This document shows positions 3,517-13,691 of a DNA stretch of 13,691 bases, piece by piece. Source of the DNA: a virus (lineage: Duplodnaviria > Heunggongvirae > Uroviricota > Caudoviricetes); the IMG/VR virus record IMGVR_UViG_2734482780_000014, positions 1-13,691 of that record, one strand, 5' to 3'. The translations under genes and the position numbers were made by a program. A model generated the notes under the pieces. That model searched no databases, was not told where the DNA came from, and saw only the letters and a program-made list of their open reading frames with translations. The number at the start of each line of letters is the position of its first letter. Position 1 is the stretch's first letter.

Positions 3517-4043
3517 TTGCGTAACTCCGATAACTCGTTAAAGCGTTCCATAAACATCCCGTAGGCATGGCCCGGTGCCAGTGGAATCACGTTGAACATC
3601 TCTGTTGCCGGGATACCTTCCAGTACAGGCCAGAAAGAGCCATCATCAAGCCCGAGATCGCGGCGTTCGGTTGCCAGCATGATGAGATCGGCATATTTCA
3701 CGGGCGTACTCATAACTGGGGGTAACCCGTATTTCTCACGGATTACGGCGTCTATTTTTTCTTCCATTTGTTTATAGTCAGGAAGAAGGCGTTTCAGTGG
3801 TGCGGGAATGTCCTGGCAATACGCTTCTGTTGCATCATGCATTAACGCTTCAAAAGCAAATTCCTGCGGCACCAACTGGCTGCAAAGAACCGCATGTTGG
3901 GCGACGCTGTAGAAGTGCGAAAGATGACCGGCAAAGCGACAGATATTTGAAAGGGAAACCGCGATATCGTTAATATCGATGTCGTCTTTATTTATCCTGT
4001 CATAATAAAAATGCTTCCCGGAAAAAGTTTTAATAAATGACAT
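3507..4043 (-). CDS. yfdR: HD-domain phosphohydrolase (YfdR-like 5'-deoxynucleotidase family), 178 aa
   Basis: H...HD signature (..LMHDATEAY..) in the translation; ATG at 4043 preceded by GGAG 8 nt upstream. The ORF-track start at 4070 is a GTG extension. Confidence 0.8.
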   Translation of the reverse strand: MSFIKTFSGKHFYYDRINKDDIDINDIAVSLSNICRFAGHLSHFYSVAQHAVLCSQLVPQEFAFEALMHDATEAYCQDIPAPLKRLLPDYKQMEEKIDAVIREKYGLPPVMSTPVKYADLIMLATERRDLGLDDGSFWPVLEGIPATEMFNVIPLAPGHAYGMFMERFNELSELRKCA

Positions 4044-4170
4044 TTTGTTCTCCACGTATATGCGCTGCACCGCGCTGAATTCTGGTAAAAAGAATCCCTC
4101 ACCATCCGGCGATTATTGAGTAAATTACGTTTCCATAAATGCCCCCGCAGGGGCATTTGCAGTAATGAAA

Positions 4171-4995
4171 TCAGGCGGTGAAAGTACCAATAAAGGTTTC
4201 TACTTTGCTGTCCTTGAATTTCTCAACAAGCAGATCACGAAATTCGTTAGCCATTTCTTCCTGCACCGCCTCCAGCTGAATAATGCGCAGAACCAGTACA
4301 GGACGATCGCCAGTGATAATACTGAGGCGTAATTTAAACGGACGTTCTTTCAGACCTTCAAACGGAACGCATTTAAATTCAAATGCCACTGGCATAATGT
4401 CTTTGATCTTCGCTTCGACAGACTCCATCAGGGAGCGTTTGCCGCTGAAGTCATTATCTTCAAAATCAGCGGTCTGGTTTGCTTCAATCGTGATTTTACG
4501 GACAGCCGCAGCCGCTTTTGTTGCCTGAATAGCGTCACCATTAGCATCAAAGCCCACAAGATAGTCGGCCCAGTCTTCAATCCATTCTGCCAGTGACTTC
4601 TGGGAGTTACGCTCGCCGTTAACAGACAACAGAGCAGAGAACGGTGCTGTCTTTTTCAGTTTGAGTGTGGCGGTGTTATCTGCGTGACCTGGTTCATCAA
4701 TAGTACCCAGGTTAAGCACACTGACGGCACGCATATTATCAGCATCGATAAAGCAGCGGGTGCCTTCATCTGCAAGATCTTTAGAATAACGGGTAAAGTC
4801 ATCGATGCTGGCAGTGGAAAGCGCACCACGGAAACGGAAGCGATTTAAATTAAATTTTTCCAGATCATGAATGCGGAAATTCTCAGGCAATGCCACAGCA
4901 TCGGCACCAATCTTACTGATAATTTCATTAACACCCTGAGCAGAAATAAGGGCATGGATTTGATTAATTGAGGTTGCGTCTAAGTTCTGAGACAT
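4171..4995 (-). CDS. yfdQ: hypothetical phage protein, 274 aa (YfdQ-like, DUF2303-type by recollection)
   Basis: ATG at 4995 with SD GAGGA upstream; size and position match yfdQ of CPS-53. Confidence 0.65.
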
Positions 4996-5060: not shown

Positions 5061-5423
5061 TTAACGACCTGCTGCGCGGAGTTTTCCGTCAGGTTCACCG
5101 GCAAGAGTCAGTAACTGTCCCTGGTCTTCCTGCAGAATAGTCAGGCGACCACCGCGATTGACATACATCGGCGTTTCGGTGGTGTCTTCTTCGGAAATTT
5201 TCCCGCGGTTAGTCGGGCGAACATATGAGAGTTTGTGTTTGATTTTCACACGGTTCTCATCAAATGGTTCGATTTCCAGGTTGAGTGAGACCTTACCTTT
5301 GGTTTTCGTGTTCATCACACCGGAAGCGACTTCACTGAGAACTGCGCCGATTTTGGTTTCAAATACGCCGCCGTCCAGCTCCCCGATAAATGCCTGCACA
5401 TCAGTACTGCGTTCGCTAGCCAT
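5061..5423 (-). CDS. yfdP: hypothetical phage protein, 120 aa (YfdP-like)
   Basis: ATG at 5423 preceded by GAGGAG at 8 nt. The upstream 106 codons of ORF 5061-5741 are Arg/Cys-rich read-through of GC-rich non-coding DNA and were excluded. Confidence 0.65.
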   Translation of the reverse strand: MASERSTDVQAFIGELDGGVFETKIGAVLSEVASGVMNTKTKGKVSLNLEIEPFDENRVKIKHKLSYVRPTNRGKISEEDTTETPMYVNRGGRLTILQEDQGQLLTLAGEPDGKLRAAGR

Positions 5424-5471
5424 TTTGCTGCTCCTCATCATATCGACCCTGCAAGGCCGATTAGTTTCTCC

Positions 5472-5560
5472 ACAAAACAGAGAAGAACACCTGCGGTGGC
5501 AGCCGCCCGGATGGATTGGGTTATGAGCCCGTCGTCCGGTGATGCTCTTCTCTGTTTTGT
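5472..5560. repeat. perfect 14-bp inverted repeat (ACAAAACAGAGAAG / CTTCTCTGTTTTGT) flanking a 61-nt GC-rich spacer
   Basis: Arms at 5472-5485 and 5547-5560 read directly; lies in a ~470-bp region with no credible ORF on either strand. Confidence 0.7.
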
Positions 5561-5824
5561 AAAAAGGACGGTACCAGCCGGAAGCAAGGGTACAAACTGG
5601 TACCTCCAGGACTACACACAGCATAAAGTTGTGGTGCCGGGTGCCTCCCGGTGCCTGGCGAAGGTTGCACACCAGACGGGTGGGTATCCACAGAAGGTCG
5701 ACTGTCAGCCTCAACCTTAACCCGCGTGCGCTGAGCCGCATTCACCACAACGCTAAGGATTCTCTCTGGTTAAAAATACTTAGCTGTTATGTGCCTGCTT
5801 TTAGCCACATCAGGCGAGGTGGAC

Positions 5825-5876
5825 CTGGTTATTCCCCAACAACAAGGATTCGGTTAATCTGGTTATCCCCAACAAC
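5825..5876 (+). repeat. two direct repeats CTGGTTAT(T)CCCCAACAAC with 34-bp period, immediately upstream of the 5892 start codon
   Basis: Copies at 5825-5843 and 5859-5876 differ by one T; further GGTTA motifs at 5767 and 5853. Confidence 0.7.
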
Positions 5877-5891
5877 GCAAAAGGAAAAGAA

Positions 5892-6326
5892 ATGTCCGGT
5901 AATATCTACACGCTGTACAAATCCCACTGTGAAAATGTTGGAAAGTATCGGGGCATTGAAATCAGTGGGGTAGTGTCATCAGTCGAAATAAGCAAAGTGG
6001 AATCAAGGGCAACATTACTTACTCTTCTGGACCTTGTCTTACATGAGCACCGGAAGAAATTCGGCACTCCCTATAATCAGTTGAATGGGAAAAAGGCTCT
6101 GGTTCACCTTATTCTGATGAAGCATCACTGGATGCCAAAACAGATTAATGAGATGAAATTTGATGAACTTCTTCTTTCAATTCAGGATGAACTCACACTT
6201 GATAAAATAAGCGTAACCGCCCAGAAATTTTTAGATTATCGAGACTGGAGATCACAAATTCATCACTTTGATGATTTTGACGAAAATGAATGGGATCCTA
6301 ATTTGTCTGCACAATATCTAAAGTAA
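5892..6326 (+). CDS. hypothetical protein, 144 aa; AT-rich moron opposite to the leftward early operon
   Basis: ATG at 5892 with AAGGA 6 nt upstream; clearly more AT-rich than flanks; no recognisable motif; acidic C-terminus. Confidence 0.7.
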   Translation: MSGNIYTLYKSHCENVGKYRGIEISGVVSSVEISKVESRATLLTLLDLVLHEHRKKFGTPYNQLNGKKALVHLILMKHHWMPKQINEMKFDELLLSIQDELTLDKISVTAQKFLDYRDWRSQIHHFDDFDENEWDPNLSAQYLK

Positions 6327-6504
6327 CATCCTGTGATAAAACCGTGATTTCCTGATCCAGTTTTTTTAAGGAGTCTATTGTTTCCTGTCGATAAGACAGC
6401 ACTTCACGAAGCTGGTTTATAGCTGCCAGCTTCTTTGCCATCCACTCGTAAATTTCCTCATCTGTGTAGCCAGGCGCGACGATTTTGGGTTCTGTTTTGT
6501 GCAT
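6298..6504 (-). CDS. hypothetical small protein, 68 aa (first gene downstream of candidate pL; acidic, coiled-coil-like, not N-like)
   Basis: ATG at 6504 preceded by GAGGAG at 9 nt; the ORF-track start at 6519 is TTG. Its 3' end overlaps the 144-aa ORF convergently by 29 nt. Confidence 0.6.
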   Translation of the reverse strand: MHKTEPKIVAPGYTDEEIYEWMAKKLAAINQLREVLSYRQETIDSLKKLDQEITVLSQDVTLDIVQTN

Positions 6505-6548
6505 TTCACATCTCCTCAAGTTATCAGTTACTTGTTGATGGGGACCAG

Positions 6549-6561
6549 ATTGTTAAAGAGC
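6549..6561 (-). promoter_or_regulatory. rrn-type boxA-like element GCTCTTTAACAAT in the pL leader RNA, immediately 3' of a hairpin
   Basis: Minus-strand sequence matches the remembered rrn boxA core (TGCTCTTTAACAAT...) at 13 of 13 positions; lies between candidate pL and the first leftward gene. Confidence 0.5.
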
Positions 6562-6563
6562 TA

Positions 6564-6587
6564 AGCGTCCTGTAGGGCGCTTTTTTG
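6564..6587 (+). terminator. intrinsic terminator for plus-strand transcripts (stem AGCGUCC/GGGCGCU, loop UGUA, then UUUUUU)
   Basis: 7-bp stem with one G-U pair followed by a T6 run on the plus strand; the same hairpin on the minus strand precedes the boxA-like element. Confidence 0.55.
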
Positions 6588-6671
6588 TTGCTAACGAATC
6601 ATCCTGGACTTCATATGCCCCAGGCGGCTACTTCGTGGGCGTCCTGCCTGTTTGTTGTTTCGCTTGGGTAC

Positions 6672-6699
6672 ATTATGTATCTCAAAGGTACATTATCAA
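6672..6699 (-). promoter_or_regulatory. candidate pL (-35 TTGATA 6699-6694, 16-nt spacer, -10 CATAAT 6677-6672) overlapped by GGTACATTAT direct repeats (putative OL)
   Basis: Hexamers read on the minus strand just downstream of the repressor terminator; GGTACATTAT copies at 6667-6676 and 6687-6696 overlap the -10 and -35. Confidence 0.45.
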
Positions 6700-6702
6700 G
6701 TA

Positions 6703-6727
6703 TAAAAAAACCTGCCGAAGCAGGTTC
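6703..6727 (-). terminator. intrinsic terminator downstream of the repressor gene (stem AACCUGC, UUCG tetraloop, U7 tract)
   Basis: Minus strand reads GAACCUGC-UUCG-GCAGGUU followed by UUUUUUU, 12 nt after the repressor stop. Confidence 0.7.
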
Positions 6728-6738
6728 ATAAACATTGA

Positions 6739-7413
6739 TTAGGCTTTGATTTTGTATCTTCTTGGTTTTCCTGAGAAAATCACTGTACCAATTATAGAGC
6801 AATTACCGTTGATCTTAATGTAAGGCTCAGGCCAGTTTGGGTTTAACGCTTTGAGATAACGCTGTGTCCCATCTTCTATCAACCTTTTGAAGGTGGTTTC
6901 ACCTGTATCGTGCATCAATGCAATAACGTCGTCACCGTGGCAGGCAGGTACTTCAGGATCGACAAAAATCATGTCTCCCGGGCGGTACTCATCAATCATT
7001 GAATCACCTATCACCCGCAAGATATAAGTCATTTCCCCACAGGGTACAGGGCAGGGATACGTTTCTGCTGTGCTCAAATCAACCTCAGAATATCCAACTT
7101 CTTTCCATGCTCCGGCCTGTACCCATGATATGACAGGGACTAATGTGATTTGTTTATTAGTGATTGAAACATCAGGTTTTTTTGTGATGTTCGTTGTCTG
7201 GTGTTCTTGATCGAGCCATCCGACAGGCAGGTCGAAACATTTTTCGATGTGTCGTGCCATGCTGTCACCGATATTTTTAGTAGCACCATCTCCCATAAAC
7301 CTGCTGGTCTGGGTTGGCTCGCGATCAATCATAGTGGCAAAGGAAGAATTCCCGCCAACACCATCTCTCAGTTTTCTGGCGTTAGACCGCCGGATGTCAT
7401 GGATTGTTTTCAT
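6739..7413 (-). CDS. CI-type prophage repressor with C-terminal S24 LexA-like peptidase domain, 224 aa
   Basis: C-terminal region resembles P22 C2 (..VIGDSM.. and LNPNWPEPYIKINGNCSIIG vs remembered LNPQYPMIEINGNCKIIG); divergent to a cro-like gene across an operator region. Confidence 0.9.
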   Translation of the reverse strand: MKTIHDIRRSNARKLRDGVGGNSSFATMIDREPTQTSRFMGDGATKNIGDSMARHIEKCFDLPVGWLDQEHQTTNITKKPDVSITNKQITLVPVISWVQAGAWKEVGYSEVDLSTAETYPCPVPCGEMTYILRVIGDSMIDEYRPGDMIFVDPEVPACHGDDVIALMHDTGETTFKRLIEDGTQRYLKALNPNWPEPYIKINGNCSIIGTVIFSGKPRRYKIKA

Positions 7414-8643: not shown

Positions 8644-8886
8644 ATGAGCACTAAATTAACCGGCTATGTATGGGATGGTTGCGCAGCGTCAGGCATGAAA
8701 TTATCCAGCGTGGCAATTATGGCCCGCTTGGCTGATTTCAGTAATGACGAAGGTGTGTGCTGGCCATCAATTGAAACCATTGCCCGCCAGATTGGCGCGG
8801 GGATGAGTACCGTCAGAACGGCTATCGCACGGCTGGAAGCAGAAGGCTGGTTAACGCGTAAGGCGCGTCGCCAGGGTACCGGGTGA
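8644..8886 (+). pseudogene. N-terminal winged-HTH fragment (80 aa) of a phage replication initiator (O-like), truncated
   Basis: ATG at 8644 with GAGGT upstream; translation has the HTH pattern typical of phage replication-initiator N-termini (recognised from memory, not aligned); the ORF stops after 80 aa and is followed by tail-fibre sequence. Confidence 0.55.
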
Positions 8887-8950
8887 TGACTCTCCGGGAG
8901 AAAACAAAAGCCAGACCGACTACTGGCAGGAGCTGAAAGAGGGCTTCTCC

Positions 8951-9166
8951 GTGGTTGTCATACTGAGTAACGGGCGTGATGAGCGCGGTCAGTTTGCCTC
9001 GTATGATGTGGTGGACGATGTCCGGCAGATGCTCTTTAAGGCCCTGCTGGGCTGGAACCCGGCTATTACAGAGGGTGGTGTTGTTGCGGCAACGACTAAA
9101 CCTGCAGGTGCGAATGAAACACGCCCACGAAATGTCGCTTTTAACTATATTGTGAGGGCTGCATAA
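8951..9166 (+). pseudogene. C-terminal fragment of a side tail fibre protein (variable part)
   Basis: Ends ...NETRPRNVAFNYIVRAA with stop overlapping the tfa ATG (TAATG) as in stf-tfa pairs; the frame is open only back to 8855, so the N-terminal bulk is missing. Confidence 0.6.
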
Positions 9167-9768
9167 TGAATAACGCAGAATTAAACAGTGAATTAATTGC
9201 CACTATGGCAGGAGAAATTACTGTTTATAACTTTGACGTCATGAGTCGGGAGTATATTTCAGCTTCAACTGAATATCTTGCTGTTGGTGTCGGCATTCCG
9301 GCATATTCCTGTTTAGATGCTCCAGGCACCTACAAAGCTGGTTATGCAATCTGCCGCTCTGCAGATTTTAACTCATGGGAATATGTACCAGACCATCGCG
9401 GTGAAATTGTCTTTAGCACCGAAACAGGAGAATCAAAAGAAATCACAGCACCGGGTGATTACCCTGATAATACAACCACTATCGCCCCGTTAACGCCATA
9501 CGATAAATGGGATGGTGAGAAATGGGTGACGGATACCGAGGCACAGCATAGCGCCGTAGTAGATGCAGCAGAAGCACAGCGCCAGTCGCTGATTGATACA
9601 GCAATGGCTTCTATCAGTCTGATTCAACTGAAATTACAGGCCGGACGGAACCTGACGCAGGCAGAAACCGCCCGACTTAACGCTGCGCTGGATTACATTG
9701 ACGCGGTGACGGCAACAGATACCAGCACCGCACCGGATGTCATCTGGCCTGAACTGCCGGAGGCGTAG
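9166..9768 (+). CDS. tfa: tail fibre assembly protein (Tfa), 200 aa
   Basis: C-terminus ...DYIDAVTATDTSTAPDVIWPELP matches the conserved Tfa C-terminal motif. Confidence 0.88.
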   Translation: MNNAELNSELIATMAGEITVYNFDVMSREYISASTEYLAVGVGIPAYSCLDAPGTYKAGYAICRSADFNSWEYVPDHRGEIVFSTETGESKEITAPGDYPDNTTTIAPLTPYDKWDGEKWVTDTEAQHSAVVDAAEAQRQSLIDTAMASISLIQLKLQAGRNLTQAETARLNAALDYIDAVTATDTSTAPDVIWPELPEA

Positions 9769-10171
9769 GCCATTCAATATCTGGCGCACTGGAAGTATCG
9801 ACCAGTTCCAGTGCGTCCAGATAATCCAGCCACAAATTATATTGCGCCAGTTCCTCACCTTTCAGACGACCAATCGCCGCTTTACCAGGCCATTGTTTAC
9901 TGTTCATGTATTCGTTGGCCTGATTAACTAATCGCTGTTTATTTGATTCAGCGATTGAGATTAATTCTTCGCTGGTAAGTGGTGGCGCATCCTGCCATGC
10001 TGGAAAACCATTTTTATCTGAACCAAGTATTTTACCATCAGGCCATGCAACTCCTGCGAACTCAGAATAAATAGTAAAGTTTATTTTCGTAGCGTTCTCA
10101 GGAATGGTTTGGCTATCTGGTGAAATATAAAATCCCGAATCAGAGGGATTAAAATAATATGTCTTTTCCAT
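9740..10171 (-). CDS. tfa: tail fibre assembly protein (alternate, opposite orientation), 143 aa
   Basis: C-terminus ...WLDYLDALELVDTSSAPDIEWPTPP; convergent 29-nt overlap with the plus-strand tfa, as in invertible tail-fibre segments. Confidence 0.88.
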   Translation of the reverse strand: MEKTYYFNPSDSGFYISPDSQTIPENATKINFTIYSEFAGVAWPDGKILGSDKNGFPAWQDAPPLTSEELISIAESNKQRLVNQANEYMNSKQWPGKAAIGRLKGEELAQYNLWLDYLDALELVDTSSAPDIEWPTPPAVQAR

Positions 10172-10173
10172 AG

Positions 10174-10572
10174 TTAATACCCCACAGCCATCCAGTAAAT
10201 TGAATTTGTTGTAGCAGAAGTGTAAGTAAATCTGATTTTAGTTCTGTTGGTACTTCCAATATCAAAGCCCACAGAACGGGCAGAAGGATCATTAGTTGAA
10301 ATAAGAGCGTTTACCGAACGACAAGCAGCAGGGAAAGCTACAGGTAATGTTATATCAACTGTTCCAACACTTCCTCCGGTTGGTGAGACAGAAAAACTCC
10401 CCCATTGAATAATCATCCCCCCAGGTAATTTCTGGTATCCATTGGCGGTCAATGAGTTACCAAAGCTGTTTATATCCGGTACCTGATTTTCTCCTGTCCC
10501 CACATTCCTCTTTGCCGCTTCTCCCAAACCAACGTTTATGAAAATGCAGAAATAACGAGCAAATGGCATCAT
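10174..10572 (-). pseudogene. alternate tail fibre C-terminal variable domain (inverted orientation), lacking the constant N-terminal part
   Basis: Immediately upstream of tfa' on the minus strand; the N-terminal about 18 codons read through the recombination site and pin leader. Confidence 0.6.
10519..10544. promoter_or_regulatory. Hin/Gin/Pin-type recombination site (hix/gix-like) TTCTCCCAAACC-AA-CGTTTATGAAAA
   Basis: About 20 of 26 positions match the remembered hixL consensus, including AAACC/GTTT half-site cores and AA centre; located just upstream of pin. Confidence 0.5.
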
Positions 10573-10598
10573 TCCTGCTTTTGTCAGGGAGATCTACC

Positions 10599-10790
10599 AT
10601 GCTTATTGGCTATGTACGTGTGTCAACAAATGACCAGAACACAGATCTACAACGTAATGCGCTGAACTGTGCAGGATGCGAGCTGATTTTTGAAGATAAG
10701 ATAAGCGGTACAAAGTCCGAGAGCCTAGGGCTGACACTGCTGTTCTTGATGCAAATTAAAGGATTTAATAGTGAGTTGTGGCCTTACTAA
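10599..10790 (+). pseudogene. pin: truncated DNA invertase (Pin/Gin/Hin serine recombinase); homology covers only about 42 N-terminal residues
   Basis: MLIGYVRVSTNDQNTDLQRNAL.CAGCE.IFEDK.SGT... is nearly identical to the e14 Pin N-terminus as remembered, then diverges (..SESLGLTLLF..) and stops at 10790; ATG at 10599 after AGGGAG. Confidence 0.85.
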
Positions 10791-10799
10791 TGTAAGGCC
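10780..10799. terminator. hairpin GGCCTTAC-TAAT-GTAAGGCC between the convergent pin' and GmrSD-like genes (possible bidirectional terminator)
   Basis: Perfect 8-bp stem; moderately T-rich only on the plus-strand side; sits where pin homology breaks down. Confidence 0.3.
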
Positions 10800-10823
10800 G
10801 CTATAATCATTTTATTAATTGCA

Positions 10824-12713
10824 TTAATCGTGTTTTGGCCATACTTTCAATGCAATTTCCCCCAACTTTTTACCCCGCTCCAGGATTTCACCTTCATCCC
10901 ATTTATCCTTAAGTATAAGTGGTATGTTCAGTCGTAGATTGGTGTGGACGATGAGAGCATCACGTTTTTTCAGAAATACAGCATTCTGAACAGAACGGTT
11001 TACGCTAAGGTTAAGCAAAGTTAGATTTCCCAACGTAGCTATCGCTTGTTGCCGTTTCCTTACCAGTAGCTGTTCAGGGGTAAGATCTGTTCCAGACAGA
11101 ACAATTTGGTTCAATACCGTTGCATCTGAATTTGTCACCATATGACCATTTTCGAGAGGCCAACAGGAATACCAACTTTGAGGCATAAGATGATCGATAT
11201 CGAGATTGGAAAGATTTGGAACATCAGGCTTCTCTGTCTTCACTTGGCGACAAAGTTCTCTTTCAAGTTCCGTTAACATTGAGCGCATTTTCGGTGCGTC
11301 GAGCCTGCCAGGATAAAGTGGAGCATTGATGCAAGCATTGAGAAATTCTGAGTCACCAGGCCAACGTGAGGCTTCGCCATTTAAGCTATTGAGGATATTA
11401 CGTAACTCAACACTGGAAATTTCCGTTTTAGACAAGTGCCGCAATACATTCATAAATACATTGTTGTAATTCTTTGGCGTCAGGCCACATACGGCTCTTC
11501 GTACTACGTAGGAGACAAGATCATTATACATGGCTGCTTTCTCACCATCGGCGATGTTAGCTATCGAAATGAACAAAGCAAGCGGATAAAGTGTCGTCAC
11601 ATCATAGGCTGCGATGCGATGTCCAAAGTGTGAGATGGGGGTTGTGCCAAAACCACCAACCAATTCTTTATATTGTGATGCATATTGTTTGAGGCGCTTT
11701 ACTTGCAGATCAGCTCGTTGTGAAGGCAAGTCCTTACTTACATAATCACGATACTCATTGTAAAGACGAGACAGATCAATTTCACGTTGCCTTTCTGATT
11801 GCAATGTCGCATGCACTAGCCACTCCATGCGTGGTTTATTAATACGTCCACGGCGTTGCCTTTCCGACCAGTATGTATCTTCAAAGCTCTTCCACTCATT
11901 TTCATATAATTCAATAGCATTAATATTTTCATGCTCAGCGCACATAAAGATGTAGTTGCGAATAAGATCCGTGGCATGAAGTTCCGCCCCTCGGCCATTT
12001 AATGTTTCAAAAATTATTTGGGCATCATCTTCAGCTTCGAGAAATATGCTTACCAGTTTCAGATCCGTCAAGACAGCCTCAATTAGTGCTACAGCATTTT
12101 CATGTGGTGAGTACTTTTCTATTTTAATCCATTTTATAAAGGCTTCAGTAAAAAACCATAATGCCTCTAGTGACGGCGGGTGGTTGAAATGTTTACGTAA
12201 CGTACCATGTTGCGTGAAGCTATCAGAAAATACATCACGGAGATCGTCAATGTTTTCAACATTAAAACTTTGAATAAAATGAGTTTGGTCTCGAAAAGTT
12301 GGCCACAGTTTGAAGCATTCTACCTTTTTATTTCGCATAGTTGCTTCGTTTGTATTTTTCAAGCAAGTCAATACTAACCCTTCCAAATCAGAAAGGCCTG
12401 TAGCACGCAATGATAATCGAATGGATGCCAGAATATATTGAAGAGTGGTTAAACGTTGCTGGCCGTCAATAATATGTATGGTATCTACACCTAACAAGCT
12501 GTTTTTGAGTTGAGGTTCCAGCACCACCGCGCCAAGGAAATGGGGAGTTGGTTTTGTTCCCAAAAGTCGGCTATGTGCTTTTTCGAAGATATCCTCCAGC
12601 AAAGCTGACCATTGGTTTTGTTGCGTCCATACGTAGGCACGTTGATAGAATGGAACACGATATTGTCGTTGATTTTGGAAAAGTTGCTGGATGGTTAGCG
12701 TTTCGGATTTCAT
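10824..12713 (-). CDS. GmrSD-family type IV restriction endonuclease-like protein (N-terminal DUF262, C-terminal DUF1524 His-Me finger), 629 aa
   Basis: N-terminal VPFYQRAYVW and IIDGQQR motifs; C-terminal DIDHLMPQSW nuclease motif; ATG at 12713 with AGGT upstream; AT-rich compared with proA. Confidence 0.8.
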   Translation of the reverse strand: MKSETLTIQQLFQNQRQYRVPFYQRAYVWTQQNQWSALLEDIFEKAHSRLLGTKPTPHFLGAVVLEPQLKNSLLGVDTIHIIDGQQRLTTLQYILASIRLSLRATGLSDLEGLVLTCLKNTNEATMRNKKVECFKLWPTFRDQTHFIQSFNVENIDDLRDVFSDSFTQHGTLRKHFNHPPSLEALWFFTEAFIKWIKIEKYSPHENAVALIEAVLTDLKLVSIFLEAEDDAQIIFETLNGRGAELHATDLIRNYIFMCAEHENINAIELYENEWKSFEDTYWSERQRRGRINKPRMEWLVHATLQSERQREIDLSRLYNEYRDYVSKDLPSQRADLQVKRLKQYASQYKELVGGFGTTPISHFGHRIAAYDVTTLYPLALFISIANIADGEKAAMYNDLVSYVVRRAVCGLTPKNYNNVFMNVLRHLSKTEISSVELRNILNSLNGEASRWPGDSEFLNACINAPLYPGRLDAPKMRSMLTELERELCRQVKTEKPDVPNLSNLDIDHLMPQSWYSCWPLENGHMVTNSDATVLNQIVLSGTDLTPEQLLVRKRQQAIATLGNLTLLNLSVNRSVQNAVFLKKRDALIVHTNLRLNIPLILKDKWDEGEILERGKKLGEIALKVWPKHD

Positions 12714-13298
12714 TGTTTACCTATAAGTGACATTCCACAAGAGTAAGAAATTCATCTGAGTCAGAATAATCATTTTTATGTAGTCATGATACAGTGTATT
12801 TGTTGCTGGTGAAGTAAAAACGAGAAATCCCGCTTTTGAATGCTGACGTGCTACGGCTTCATTGGATATTCTCTTTTGTCTGTTCTCCATTGCGTCGGTG
12901 TTTTGTCGAGATTGTTAGCACACTGTTGCTGCTGTTTTTTTATCCAAGCGCTGCTAAATCATTGTAGATGGCACTATCGGGTATTGAAGCTGCAGACATG
13001 TCGTATACAATAGTCAGCTGCGACTGGCTGGTGAACTTCCGATAGTGCTAGTATTGAATTATGTCAAGCCGTTATCGATTTTACGTATTTTTTGTATGAG
13101 AGGATTTGCACCTCCTCCCACCGCTCCTCCATGACTTTACGCCACTGTCTCTAGGGCTGCTAAGTGCCAGGAACGGACATTGGTGGTATGCAGGATCAGA
13201 GGGGAATAAAAAACTTATTATATTGATTAAGATGGGGCTATTCTTGGCGACTTAAGCCGATATGATACAGATCAAGTGTGCTCTTTTAGGGTTCCATA

Positions 13299-13691
13299 TT
13301 GATTAACAGAAAATTAATTGTAGAGTTAATCGTATATTTCATGAGAGATGAATTGATTCGTGGATTTTCGAAGTGGGGGCGTCGGGTAAAGACTGACCTG
13401 ACACAGATGGATGAATCTTTCCCAATAATGCCGATTTTTAATGAGCACATCAATTCTATTTTCAAAGTGTATATTCTATTCAATGAAAAATATCACATCA
13501 CAAAAGCTTTAAAAGCAAAAGAATTCATAATAAACTTCATTGGAGAGAGAGAGGATTATATTGATGATGAATACATTATCGCAGAACTAAAAAATACACA
13601 AACAGGTTTGAGTATAAACAAAAAAACCATTCCTACATCAGCGCTTGAGAAAATATCCGATTTTTACAGAATAAAAGAATACCTATTTTAG
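13299..13691 (+). CDS. hypothetical protein, 130 aa (116 aa if it starts at ATG 13341); very AT-rich, divergent from the GmrSD-like gene
   Basis: ORF ending with TAG exactly at the window end; TTG at 13299 follows AGGG by 7 nt, ATG at 13341 has no SD; no recognisable motif. Confidence 0.5.
   Translation: MINRKLIVELIVYFMRDELIRGFSKWGRRVKTDLTQMDESFPIMPIFNEHINSIFKVYILFNEKYHITKALKAKEFIINFIGEREDYIDDEYIIAELKNTQTGLSINKKTIPTSALEKISDFYRIKEYLF

Follow-up and report, generated by a model that had tools for sequence, protein, structure and literature searches.

The leader of the leftward early operon in a lambdoid prophage of the SfIV/e14 type, which has no recognizable N gene, carries a boxA of the kind found in the rRNA operons of Escherichia coli, and comparison across related leaders gives good evidence that the conserved motif is a boxA of the sense strand. 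We consider it somewhat probable that, where a long antisense stretch begins, this boxA protects the transcript from Rho independently of N, through a complex nucleated by NusB/E; the binding of Nus factors, the target of Rho, and the direction in which boxA acts are inferred.

The prophage and its leftward leader

The window, by which we mean the whole stretch of 13,691 nucleotides that was analyzed, comprises proA, a tRNA-Thr(CGU) gene (positions 1369 to 1441), and part of a prophage, namely its left arm and immunity region; the prophage is 98% identical to Shigella phage SfIV across the region in question, and the same type of immunity region is found in SfV and in e14, a cryptic prophage of E. 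coli K-12. On the minus strand, cI (6739 to 7413) is followed by its terminator (6708 to 6727), a promoter-like site, a 160-nucleotide leader, a gene for a 68-amino-acid protein, yfdP/Q/R-like genes, xis, and int, and cro and a cII-like gene are read rightward. To the right of position 8886 the prophage is truncated. From 8644 to 13691 it is truncated or rearranged, a replication-gene fragment (8644 to 8886) abutting tail-fiber assembly genes (9166 to 10572), with a GmrSD-type restriction gene next in order (10824 to 12713).

The candidate pL occupies positions 6672 to 6699 of the minus strand (predicted TTGATA and CATAAT, separated by 16 nt) and is flanked by repeated ATAATGTACC operator-like motifs. 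Its position is that of a promoter annotated in phage Ayreon, and promoter-like matches in the window do not exceed those in shuffled sequence; e14 of E. coli K-12 has a nearly identical pL sequence downstream of ymfK. When folded as a whole, the leader was no more stable than its shuffles (z = -0.07). BLAST comparisons revealed a modular construction, with the first ~70 nt and the block formed by a hairpin and boxA having different relatives. Thus, SfV has the promoter and the first part of the leader in common with the window and diverges before the hairpin; for phages Kati, 689R6, and 569R4, the similarity covers the hairpin, boxA, and first gene and leaves out the promoter; and Klebsiella phage Kp4882-1 shares 42 nt only, consisting of the hairpin and boxA.

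A perfect rrn-type boxA

The element (GCUCUUUAACAAU with the 3' extension CUGG) spans positions 6545 to 6561 of the minus strand, boxA itself being located at 6549 to 6561 and CUGG at 6545 to 6548, ~105 nt past the predicted pL and 33 nt ahead of the 68-amino-acid gene's ribosome-binding site. The 13-mer GCTCTTTAACAAT at 6549 to 6561 has no other exact copy in the window. The initial annotation had matched it to the rrn boxA core at 13 of 13 positions and had put the chance of such a match at about 4 in 10,000. Both statements hold, since the MG1655 rrnB leader that we fetched (...gcggcacTGCTCTTTAACAATttatcag / TGCTCTTTAACAATTTATCAG) is identical at all 13 positions and the analytic expectation is 2 x 13691 / 4^13 = 4e-4; with up to two mismatches allowed, shuffled sequences average 0.5 matches to the 13-mer. 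Within it, GCTCTTTAACA (6551 to 6561, minus strand) is the sole perfect match, both in the window and in the 14.8 kb of SfIV, to GYTCTTTAANA, the published functional boxA consensus (PMC5725501). A scan of the window and of the same 14.8 kb with this consensus disclosed no second boxA in the rightward operon.

The match runs past the consensus into UCUGG(AU), an extension also present in the T7 early leader and in the 16S-23S spacer of rrn operons. The alignment to rrn sequences that had been proposed as a check gave, beyond the 13/13 leader match, 16/17 identity between GCUCUUUAACAAUCUGG and the rrnB 16S-23S spacer boxA region GCUCUUUAAAAAUCUGGAU, where the order is hairpin-U-GCUCUUUAAAAAUCUGGAUCAAGC; identity with the T7 early leader past promoter A3 is 17/17. 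Phage variants reading GCUCUUUAAAAAUCUGGAU, with A at position 10, match the rrnB spacer at 19 of 19 positions, and A for C at this position is the natural difference between rrn leader and rrn spacer. Some 900 phage records, mostly T7-like, have 17 to 20 nt in common with the extended boxA. The extension beyond the 11-nt consensus may be of functional importance. Written in full, the extended motif GCUCUUUAA(C/A)AAUCUGG(AU) is common to T7 (L338, nt about 812 to 829), the rrnB spacer (L342, locus positions 342 to 366), and the prophage module.

Conservation of boxA across leaders

To avoid the circularity of a scan that takes boxA as its own anchor, other anchors were used. The first, the invariant core of an upstream leader RNA (Element 1, described below), recovered 110 unique leaders, 15 of which contained the exact 13-mer within 260 nt and 2 of which contained it with one mismatch, with the rest at background. 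The second, the hairpin plus Element 1, recovered 32 unique leaders, and in 29 a perfect GYTCTTTAANA begins 0 to 1 nt past the hairpin; the other 3 comprise 1 with a substitution at position 2 and 2 with a decayed motif. Across the 29, 12 of the 13 boxA positions are invariant and position 10, the N of the consensus, alone varies (C in 26, A in 3); the single spacer base has four states, and the hairpin loop has eight variants. The sequences compared are related by descent and recombination, so that these counts overstate their independence. At the level of sequence, the conservation of boxA follows the NusB/NusE-binding consensus, and the element looks functional.

The boxA module is always found in the sense orientation past an early promoter, behind several different immunity regions, and is present, never annotated, in ~20% of complete E. 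coli genomes. In one viral contig (L080), boxA-CUGGAUAUCC follows the promoter with neither hairpin nor Element 1. An exact 14-mer scan of viral contigs was discarded as evidence and its matches were left uncounted, because most of them were chance coding matches (in L126/L098, for example, IVKEL on the other strand).

The adjacent hairpin is a probable terminator of the opposite strand

The hairpin beside boxA is predicted to be the intrinsic terminator of an accessory-gene slot on the plus strand (6563 to 6586), with stem AAGCGTCC/GGGCGCTT, loop TGTA, and a following T-tract. Read in the pL sense it is weak (-7.5 kcal/mol, with one C.A mismatch; z = -0.67, no better than shuffles); on the plus strand the mismatch becomes U.G, giving an 8-bp stem of -12.1 kcal/mol followed by T6. 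These values, together with a convergent gene upstream on that strand, bear out the earlier suggestion that the hairpin serves as a plus-strand terminator. As a sense-strand terminator it was rejected, being unflagged by the scan, weak, and poor in its U-tract. The same hairpin (AAAAGCGCCC-N3-4-GGACGCTT) occurs in many unrelated phage contexts that have no boxA and is therefore a generic terminator. The A-run ahead of it is invariant and forms the T-tract of the other strand, some of its loops read UUCG on that strand, and no covariation was detected in its stem.

Counted with the 8-bp stem, the hairpin (6563 to 6582) ends 1 nt from boxA, or 3 nt if the G-C core alone is considered, and in rrnB the corresponding gaps are 2 nt for the leader and 1 nt for the spacer. 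The initial annotation had accordingly compared the arrangement to the boxB-then-boxA order of rrn leaders. The location of the hairpin directly 5' of boxA stands; its role as a boxB analogue was rejected, given its generic character, its retained A-run, the convergent gene beyond it, and its stem devoid of covariation, and the likeness to the rrn order is probably incidental. What survives of the original interpretation is a boxA in the sense strand of the pL leader, with consensus-type conservation and no N. The hairpin may also keep boxA single stranded.

Convergent accessory genes behind boxA

The first pL-sense gene (6298 to 6504, minus strand; ATG at 6504, stop at 6298, Shine-Dalgarno sequence GAGGAG at 6512 to 6517) encodes an acidic 68-amino-acid protein with a predicted coiled coil (PHROG 1744). 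Facing it on the plus strand is an accessory gene, or "moron," for a 144-amino-acid protein (5892 to 6326; PHROG 5286; low GC); the 3' ends of the two genes overlap by 29 nt, and the terminator at 6563 to 6586 lies downstream of the 144-amino-acid gene. G+C content is 35 to 40% at 6000 to 6400, ~50 to 57% in the left flank (5100 to 5800), and 38 to 48% on the right. Both members of the convergent pair are low in G+C, and a homologous pair (148 and 64 amino acids) is found behind a different immunity region in one further locus (L128). The SfIV genome paper describes orf35/36 as unique and of unknown function (PMC3851460).

A convergent open reading frame of at least 100 codons lies within 800 nt in 15/15 boxA-positive leaders, compared with 16/89 boxA-negative leaders, some of the reading frames in the latter group being spurious. 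In each variant with boxA that was examined, the convergent stop codon is located 23 to 41 nt past boxA, except that a small sense gene in between, present in the window, brings the distance to ~235 nt. Among the variants examined, five unrelated convergent cassettes occur behind boxA: the 144-amino-acid PHROG 5286 type of the window, with its small sense gene ahead; SieB-like membrane proteins accompanied by Pro-rich mini-ORFs; coiled-coil proteins of 160 to 173 amino acids; DUF1311-like periplasmic proteins; and a Zn-ribbon protein. The mini-ORFs, of 22 to 27 amino acids (e.g., MSRPIEPFHIPPRPRPPDPGPK), lie between the SieB-like genes and the terminator in L069, L106, L186, and L137. Just upstream of the 144-amino-acid gene, the plus strand bears two copies of a direct repeat, GGTTAT(T)CCCCAACAAC (5829 to 5845 and 5862 to 5877); this region seems to recur upstream of most convergent cassettes elsewhere, judged from similar spurious-ORF translations only, and the repeat may serve as a promoter or a regulator site, or it may mark where the slot ends on its left.

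Such an association with convergent genes is equally expected if the block, which reads CCAG-ATTGTTAAAGAGC-N-hairpin-T6 on the plus strand, is a mere cassette flank, that is, the 3' border of the accessory slot, kept by recombination at the junction and without a function as RNA in the pL direction. In favor of this reading, a convergent cassette is always present beside the block, which moves as one unit between immunity types and whose hairpin is itself a generic terminator. A passive flank, however, leaves unexplained the 13- to 19-nt identity to the rrn leader and spacer boxA and to the T7 leader, where there is no convergent gene, the restriction of variation to the N of the consensus, and the retention of boxA without the hairpin in L080. 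As the T7 and rrn contexts have no convergent gene, the conservation of boxA is not owed to the opposite strand in general, and we regard a fortuitous origin as unlikely relative to a boxA that serves the pL transcript.

A conserved structured RNA at the start of the leader

The first part of the leader specifies a conserved structured RNA of 68 nt, designated Element 1 (6591 to 6658, minus strand), which was delineated by covariation and a covariance model; it falls within the coordinates of the initial annotation but is not mentioned there. In its outer helix, P1, positions 6651 to 6655 pair with 6594 to 6598, and in its hairpin, P2, 6620 to 6624 pair with 6603 to 6607; between P1 and P2 are an invariant AGGCAGGACGCCCACGAAGUAGC core, a GGCAUAYGAA loop, and GAUGA. 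In an alignment of 50 distinct copies, in which the invariant core was fixed by the search pattern, 97.5% of the cells assigned to pairs were paired compared with 21 to 50% in slid controls, 9 of the 10 pairs showed compensatory changes, and the covariation score was 0.625 compared with at most 0.13 in controls. Element 1 is present in more than 100 distinct N-less lambdoid leaders and is kept in phages of Escherichia, Shigella, Salmonella, Klebsiella, Citrobacter, Yersinia, Pectobacterium, and Pantoea. The covariance model found one copy in the window (87 bits, E = 1e-27) and one in SfIV, in each case just past pL, as well as one in e14 of E. coli K-12 (72.8 bits; NC_000913.3, about 1202110 to 1202178, between ymfK and ymfJ), and none in the rightward operon, lambda, HK022, or HK639. 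A search of Rfam with the whole window and with the leader alone returned nothing relevant to the leader or to Element 1, the best E value being 0.24, far under gathering scores.

Identity with the put RNAs of HK022 and HK639 was considered and rejected, as the put sequences were read and the covariance model gave no match at putL or putR; the annotated putL-like RNA of HK639 resembles HK022 putL, not Element 1. The resemblance to put is one of position and size only (both are RNAs of ~65 to 70 nt with which the pL transcript of a lambdoid phage without N begins), whereas sequence and structure differ and Element 1 is single copy and leftward only. Its extreme 5' position in phages without N and its loops, which do not vary between host genera, suggest, as a conjecture, a host partner such as RNA polymerase. 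It is possible, and we put it forward tentatively, that Element 1 is a new class of cis-acting RNA, a put analogue acting on the host transcription machinery that would give SfV-, SfIV-, ST64B-, e14-, and Gifsy-like phages N-independent antitermination, with boxA as an add-on acquired together with convergent accessory genes as a defense against Rho.

A second leader motif, GCGCAGYAGGU...AACGUUCCGCYRGCCNGGCGAYAAGGC, with a small covarying hairpin, was seen in L009, L011, L013, L014, L015, and L071. It lies ~70 to 130 nt past Element 1 in RecE/Kil-type phages, occurs also in K-12 Rac (L340, about 9500), and in some phages precedes the hairpin-boxA block.

Absence of N and of a nut arrangement

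PHROG and Pfam searches detected no N-like or Arg-rich protein in the window or among the SfIV early ORFs, a Q-like protein being the only antiterminator-type match in these early genes, and the SfIV genome paper reports that SfIV, SfV, and SfII lack N (PMC3851460). The initial annotation was therefore right to describe a leftward operon with no N-like first gene, and also in its description of that gene's product as acidic and not Arg-rich, with a pI of 4.78 and 2 Arg residues compared with a pI of 10.7 and 16 Arg residues for annotated lambda N. In the interval from boxA to the start codon, where the lambda-type order would place boxB, no hairpin is predicted, and the proposed alignment to the lambda and P22 nut sites yielded a reversed order and no boxB-like loop of the GNRA type. 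Neither a cognate N nor a second, rightward site, by which a lambda-type nut is recognized, was found. Given that there is no N and that the single boxA is leftward, the arrangement is best read as one that uses Nus factors independently of N. The "Nus-dependent" mEp phages were considered as an N-less parallel and rejected, because they use an N-like protein (PMC11893012).

An unrecognized phage antiterminator might nonetheless be served by a nut-like half-site, with either the hairpin or Element 1 as the boxB equivalent, since proteins of the N type vary greatly and their genes may lie apart from pL, as for mEp021 Gp17 (PMC11893012), and since one viral locus, L032, has boxA followed by hairpins in both of its divergent early operons. 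We consider this very improbable. The early genes just described offer no candidate of the Arg-rich or N family, the one boxA and the one Element 1 are both leftward, ~85% of leaders with Element 1 have no boxA, and the core of Element 1, being invariant in phages of six host genera, suggests a partner supplied by the host.

An untranslated stretch and a proposed protection from Rho

Beyond the first gene, the pL transcript runs for ~865 nt (5433 to 6297, minus strand) without a sense-strand gene, antisense to the accessory gene, and includes a C-rich, G-poor tract (31% C and 12% G at about 5925 to 6015). Just upstream of the yfdP-like gene it contains an STnc100-like structured RNA (5559 to 5781, minus strand; 38 bits and E = 1.8e-5, under the gathering score). 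Our scan found no convincing sense-strand intrinsic terminator between boxA and int. A second, weaker STnc100-like match lies at 4000 to 4179 of the minus strand. The 226-amino-acid ORF at 5061 to 5741 in the SfIV annotation runs into the STnc100-like RNA and is probably overextended, with its real start likely to be near 5432. A similar CACCUGGAGGCACC motif occurs in the kilS region of K-12 Rac.

Untranslated RNA that is rich in C and poor in G is the classic substrate of Rho. A boxA alone shields untranslated CRISPR transcripts from Rho (PMC7665894). Given RNA of the Rho type here and this precedent for a lone boxA, protection from Rho is therefore the best-supported reading. On this account, the 13-mer would be a true BoxA RNA element within the pL leader of an SfIV/e14-type prophage without N and, once transcribed, would be bound by host NusB-NusE(S10); NusA, NusG, and SuhB would then join to form a modified elongation complex of the rrn type. 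Resistant to Rho, this complex would allow polymerase to cross the ~865 nt that are untranslatable in the pL direction, comprising the antisense of the convergent accessory gene and the structured STnc100-like RNA, and so to reach the yfdP/Q/R-like genes, xis, and int, while the hairpin beside boxA would halt rightward transcription before it enters pL and cI. The related leaders of L211, L235, L171, and YeP1 cross convergent genes without a boxA, so that boxA is not indispensable.

BoxA and Nus factors can, depending on context, promote rather than prevent Rho termination, and boxA can repress translation of a nearby downstream gene (PMC5725501), so that antitermination is not the sole possible outcome. 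A Nus complex tethered at boxA could block ribosomes at the 68-amino-acid gene, uncouple translation, promote Rho termination, and damp the leftward operon. There are precedents in a ParE-like toxin gene, in suhB, and in lambda N/nutL. The window has a perfect consensus boxA within 50 nt of an ORF start, as the criterion used in PMC5725501 demands; according to the same paper, boxA still represses when the Shine-Dalgarno sequence is up to 100 nt away, and here that sequence lies 33 nt downstream. Most versions of the module, however, have a convergent gene and not a sense gene past boxA, so that repression is not their common function, and shutting off xis and int after induction would make little biological sense. 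We accordingly assign repression a low probability and retain protection from Rho as the preferred function.

Comparison with known systems

The closest counterpart is the E. coli rrn system (NusB/E, NusA, NusG, SuhB, and S4), with which the window shares the 13/13 leader and 16/17 spacer boxA followed by UCUGG, the hairpin 1 to 2 nt upstream, and a presumed independence from any phage protein; it differs in that its boxA lies in a phage mRNA leader and its hairpin is a predicted opposite-strand terminator, not a boxB. The boxA of CRISPR arrays (Stringer et al. 2020, PMC7665894) may be regarded as analogous, as a lone boxA ahead of a long untranslated transcript exposed to Rho, although the stretch in the window is the antisense of an inserted accessory gene within a protein-coding phage operon. 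In the T7 early leader, past A1 to A3, CGCUCUUUAACAAUCUGG is identical over 17 nt, in a transcript made by host RNA polymerase without N, but T7, a podovirus, is lytic, and no convergent gene faces its boxA. With the nut sites and N of lambda and P22, the window has in common a boxA in the pL leader and the presumed use of host Nus factors, and it diverges in its reversed order and in having no GNRA-type boxB loop, no N, and no nutR counterpart. The boxA sites of suhB and the ParE toxin gene (Baniulyte et al. 2017, PMC5725501) likewise have a start codon no more than 50 nt from a consensus boxA, but those sites repress, and the module seen here mostly has no sense gene next to it.

Several other phage sequences were noted in passing. 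The Stx2a phage P13374 (L339, about 1390 to 1520) has a promoter-like site, UGCUCUUUAACAAUCUGGAG, and a ~350-nt untranslated leader ahead of regulator and antirepressor genes, and is another instance of a lone boxA in the leader of a phage operon. In viral contigs L074/L110 and L058, a consensus sigma-70 promoter is followed within ~10 to 15 nt by boxA and then by tRNA genes, and these phage tRNA operons appear to use boxA. In L032 (reverse complement, about 7040 and 7195), each of the divergent early promoters precedes CAUCAACGGC...GCGCUCUUUAACAAU, with hairpins after it, in a nutL/nutR-like arrangement.

Significance

That boxA-mediated regulation extends beyond rRNA is already established, and Element 1 is the part of this locus that may be new. 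We found neither Element 1 nor the occurrence of boxA in pL leaders of lambdoid phages without N described in the literature that we searched, whose coverage is incomplete, and a literal-sequence search of the literature for the boxA block and Element 1 matched only a T7 construct. For N-less lambdoid phages, among them SfV, SfII, SfIV, ST64B, e14, and many prophages, put of the HK022 type is to our knowledge the only means so far described by which early transcription reaches xis and int. The locus offers two testable devices in this respect, a host-type boxA and a widespread structured leader RNA. If the reading that we favor is true, antitermination by Nus factors extends from rRNA and CRISPR arrays to protein-coding phage operons, and the arrangement would show how such an operon can tolerate an accessory gene inserted in the opposite orientation.
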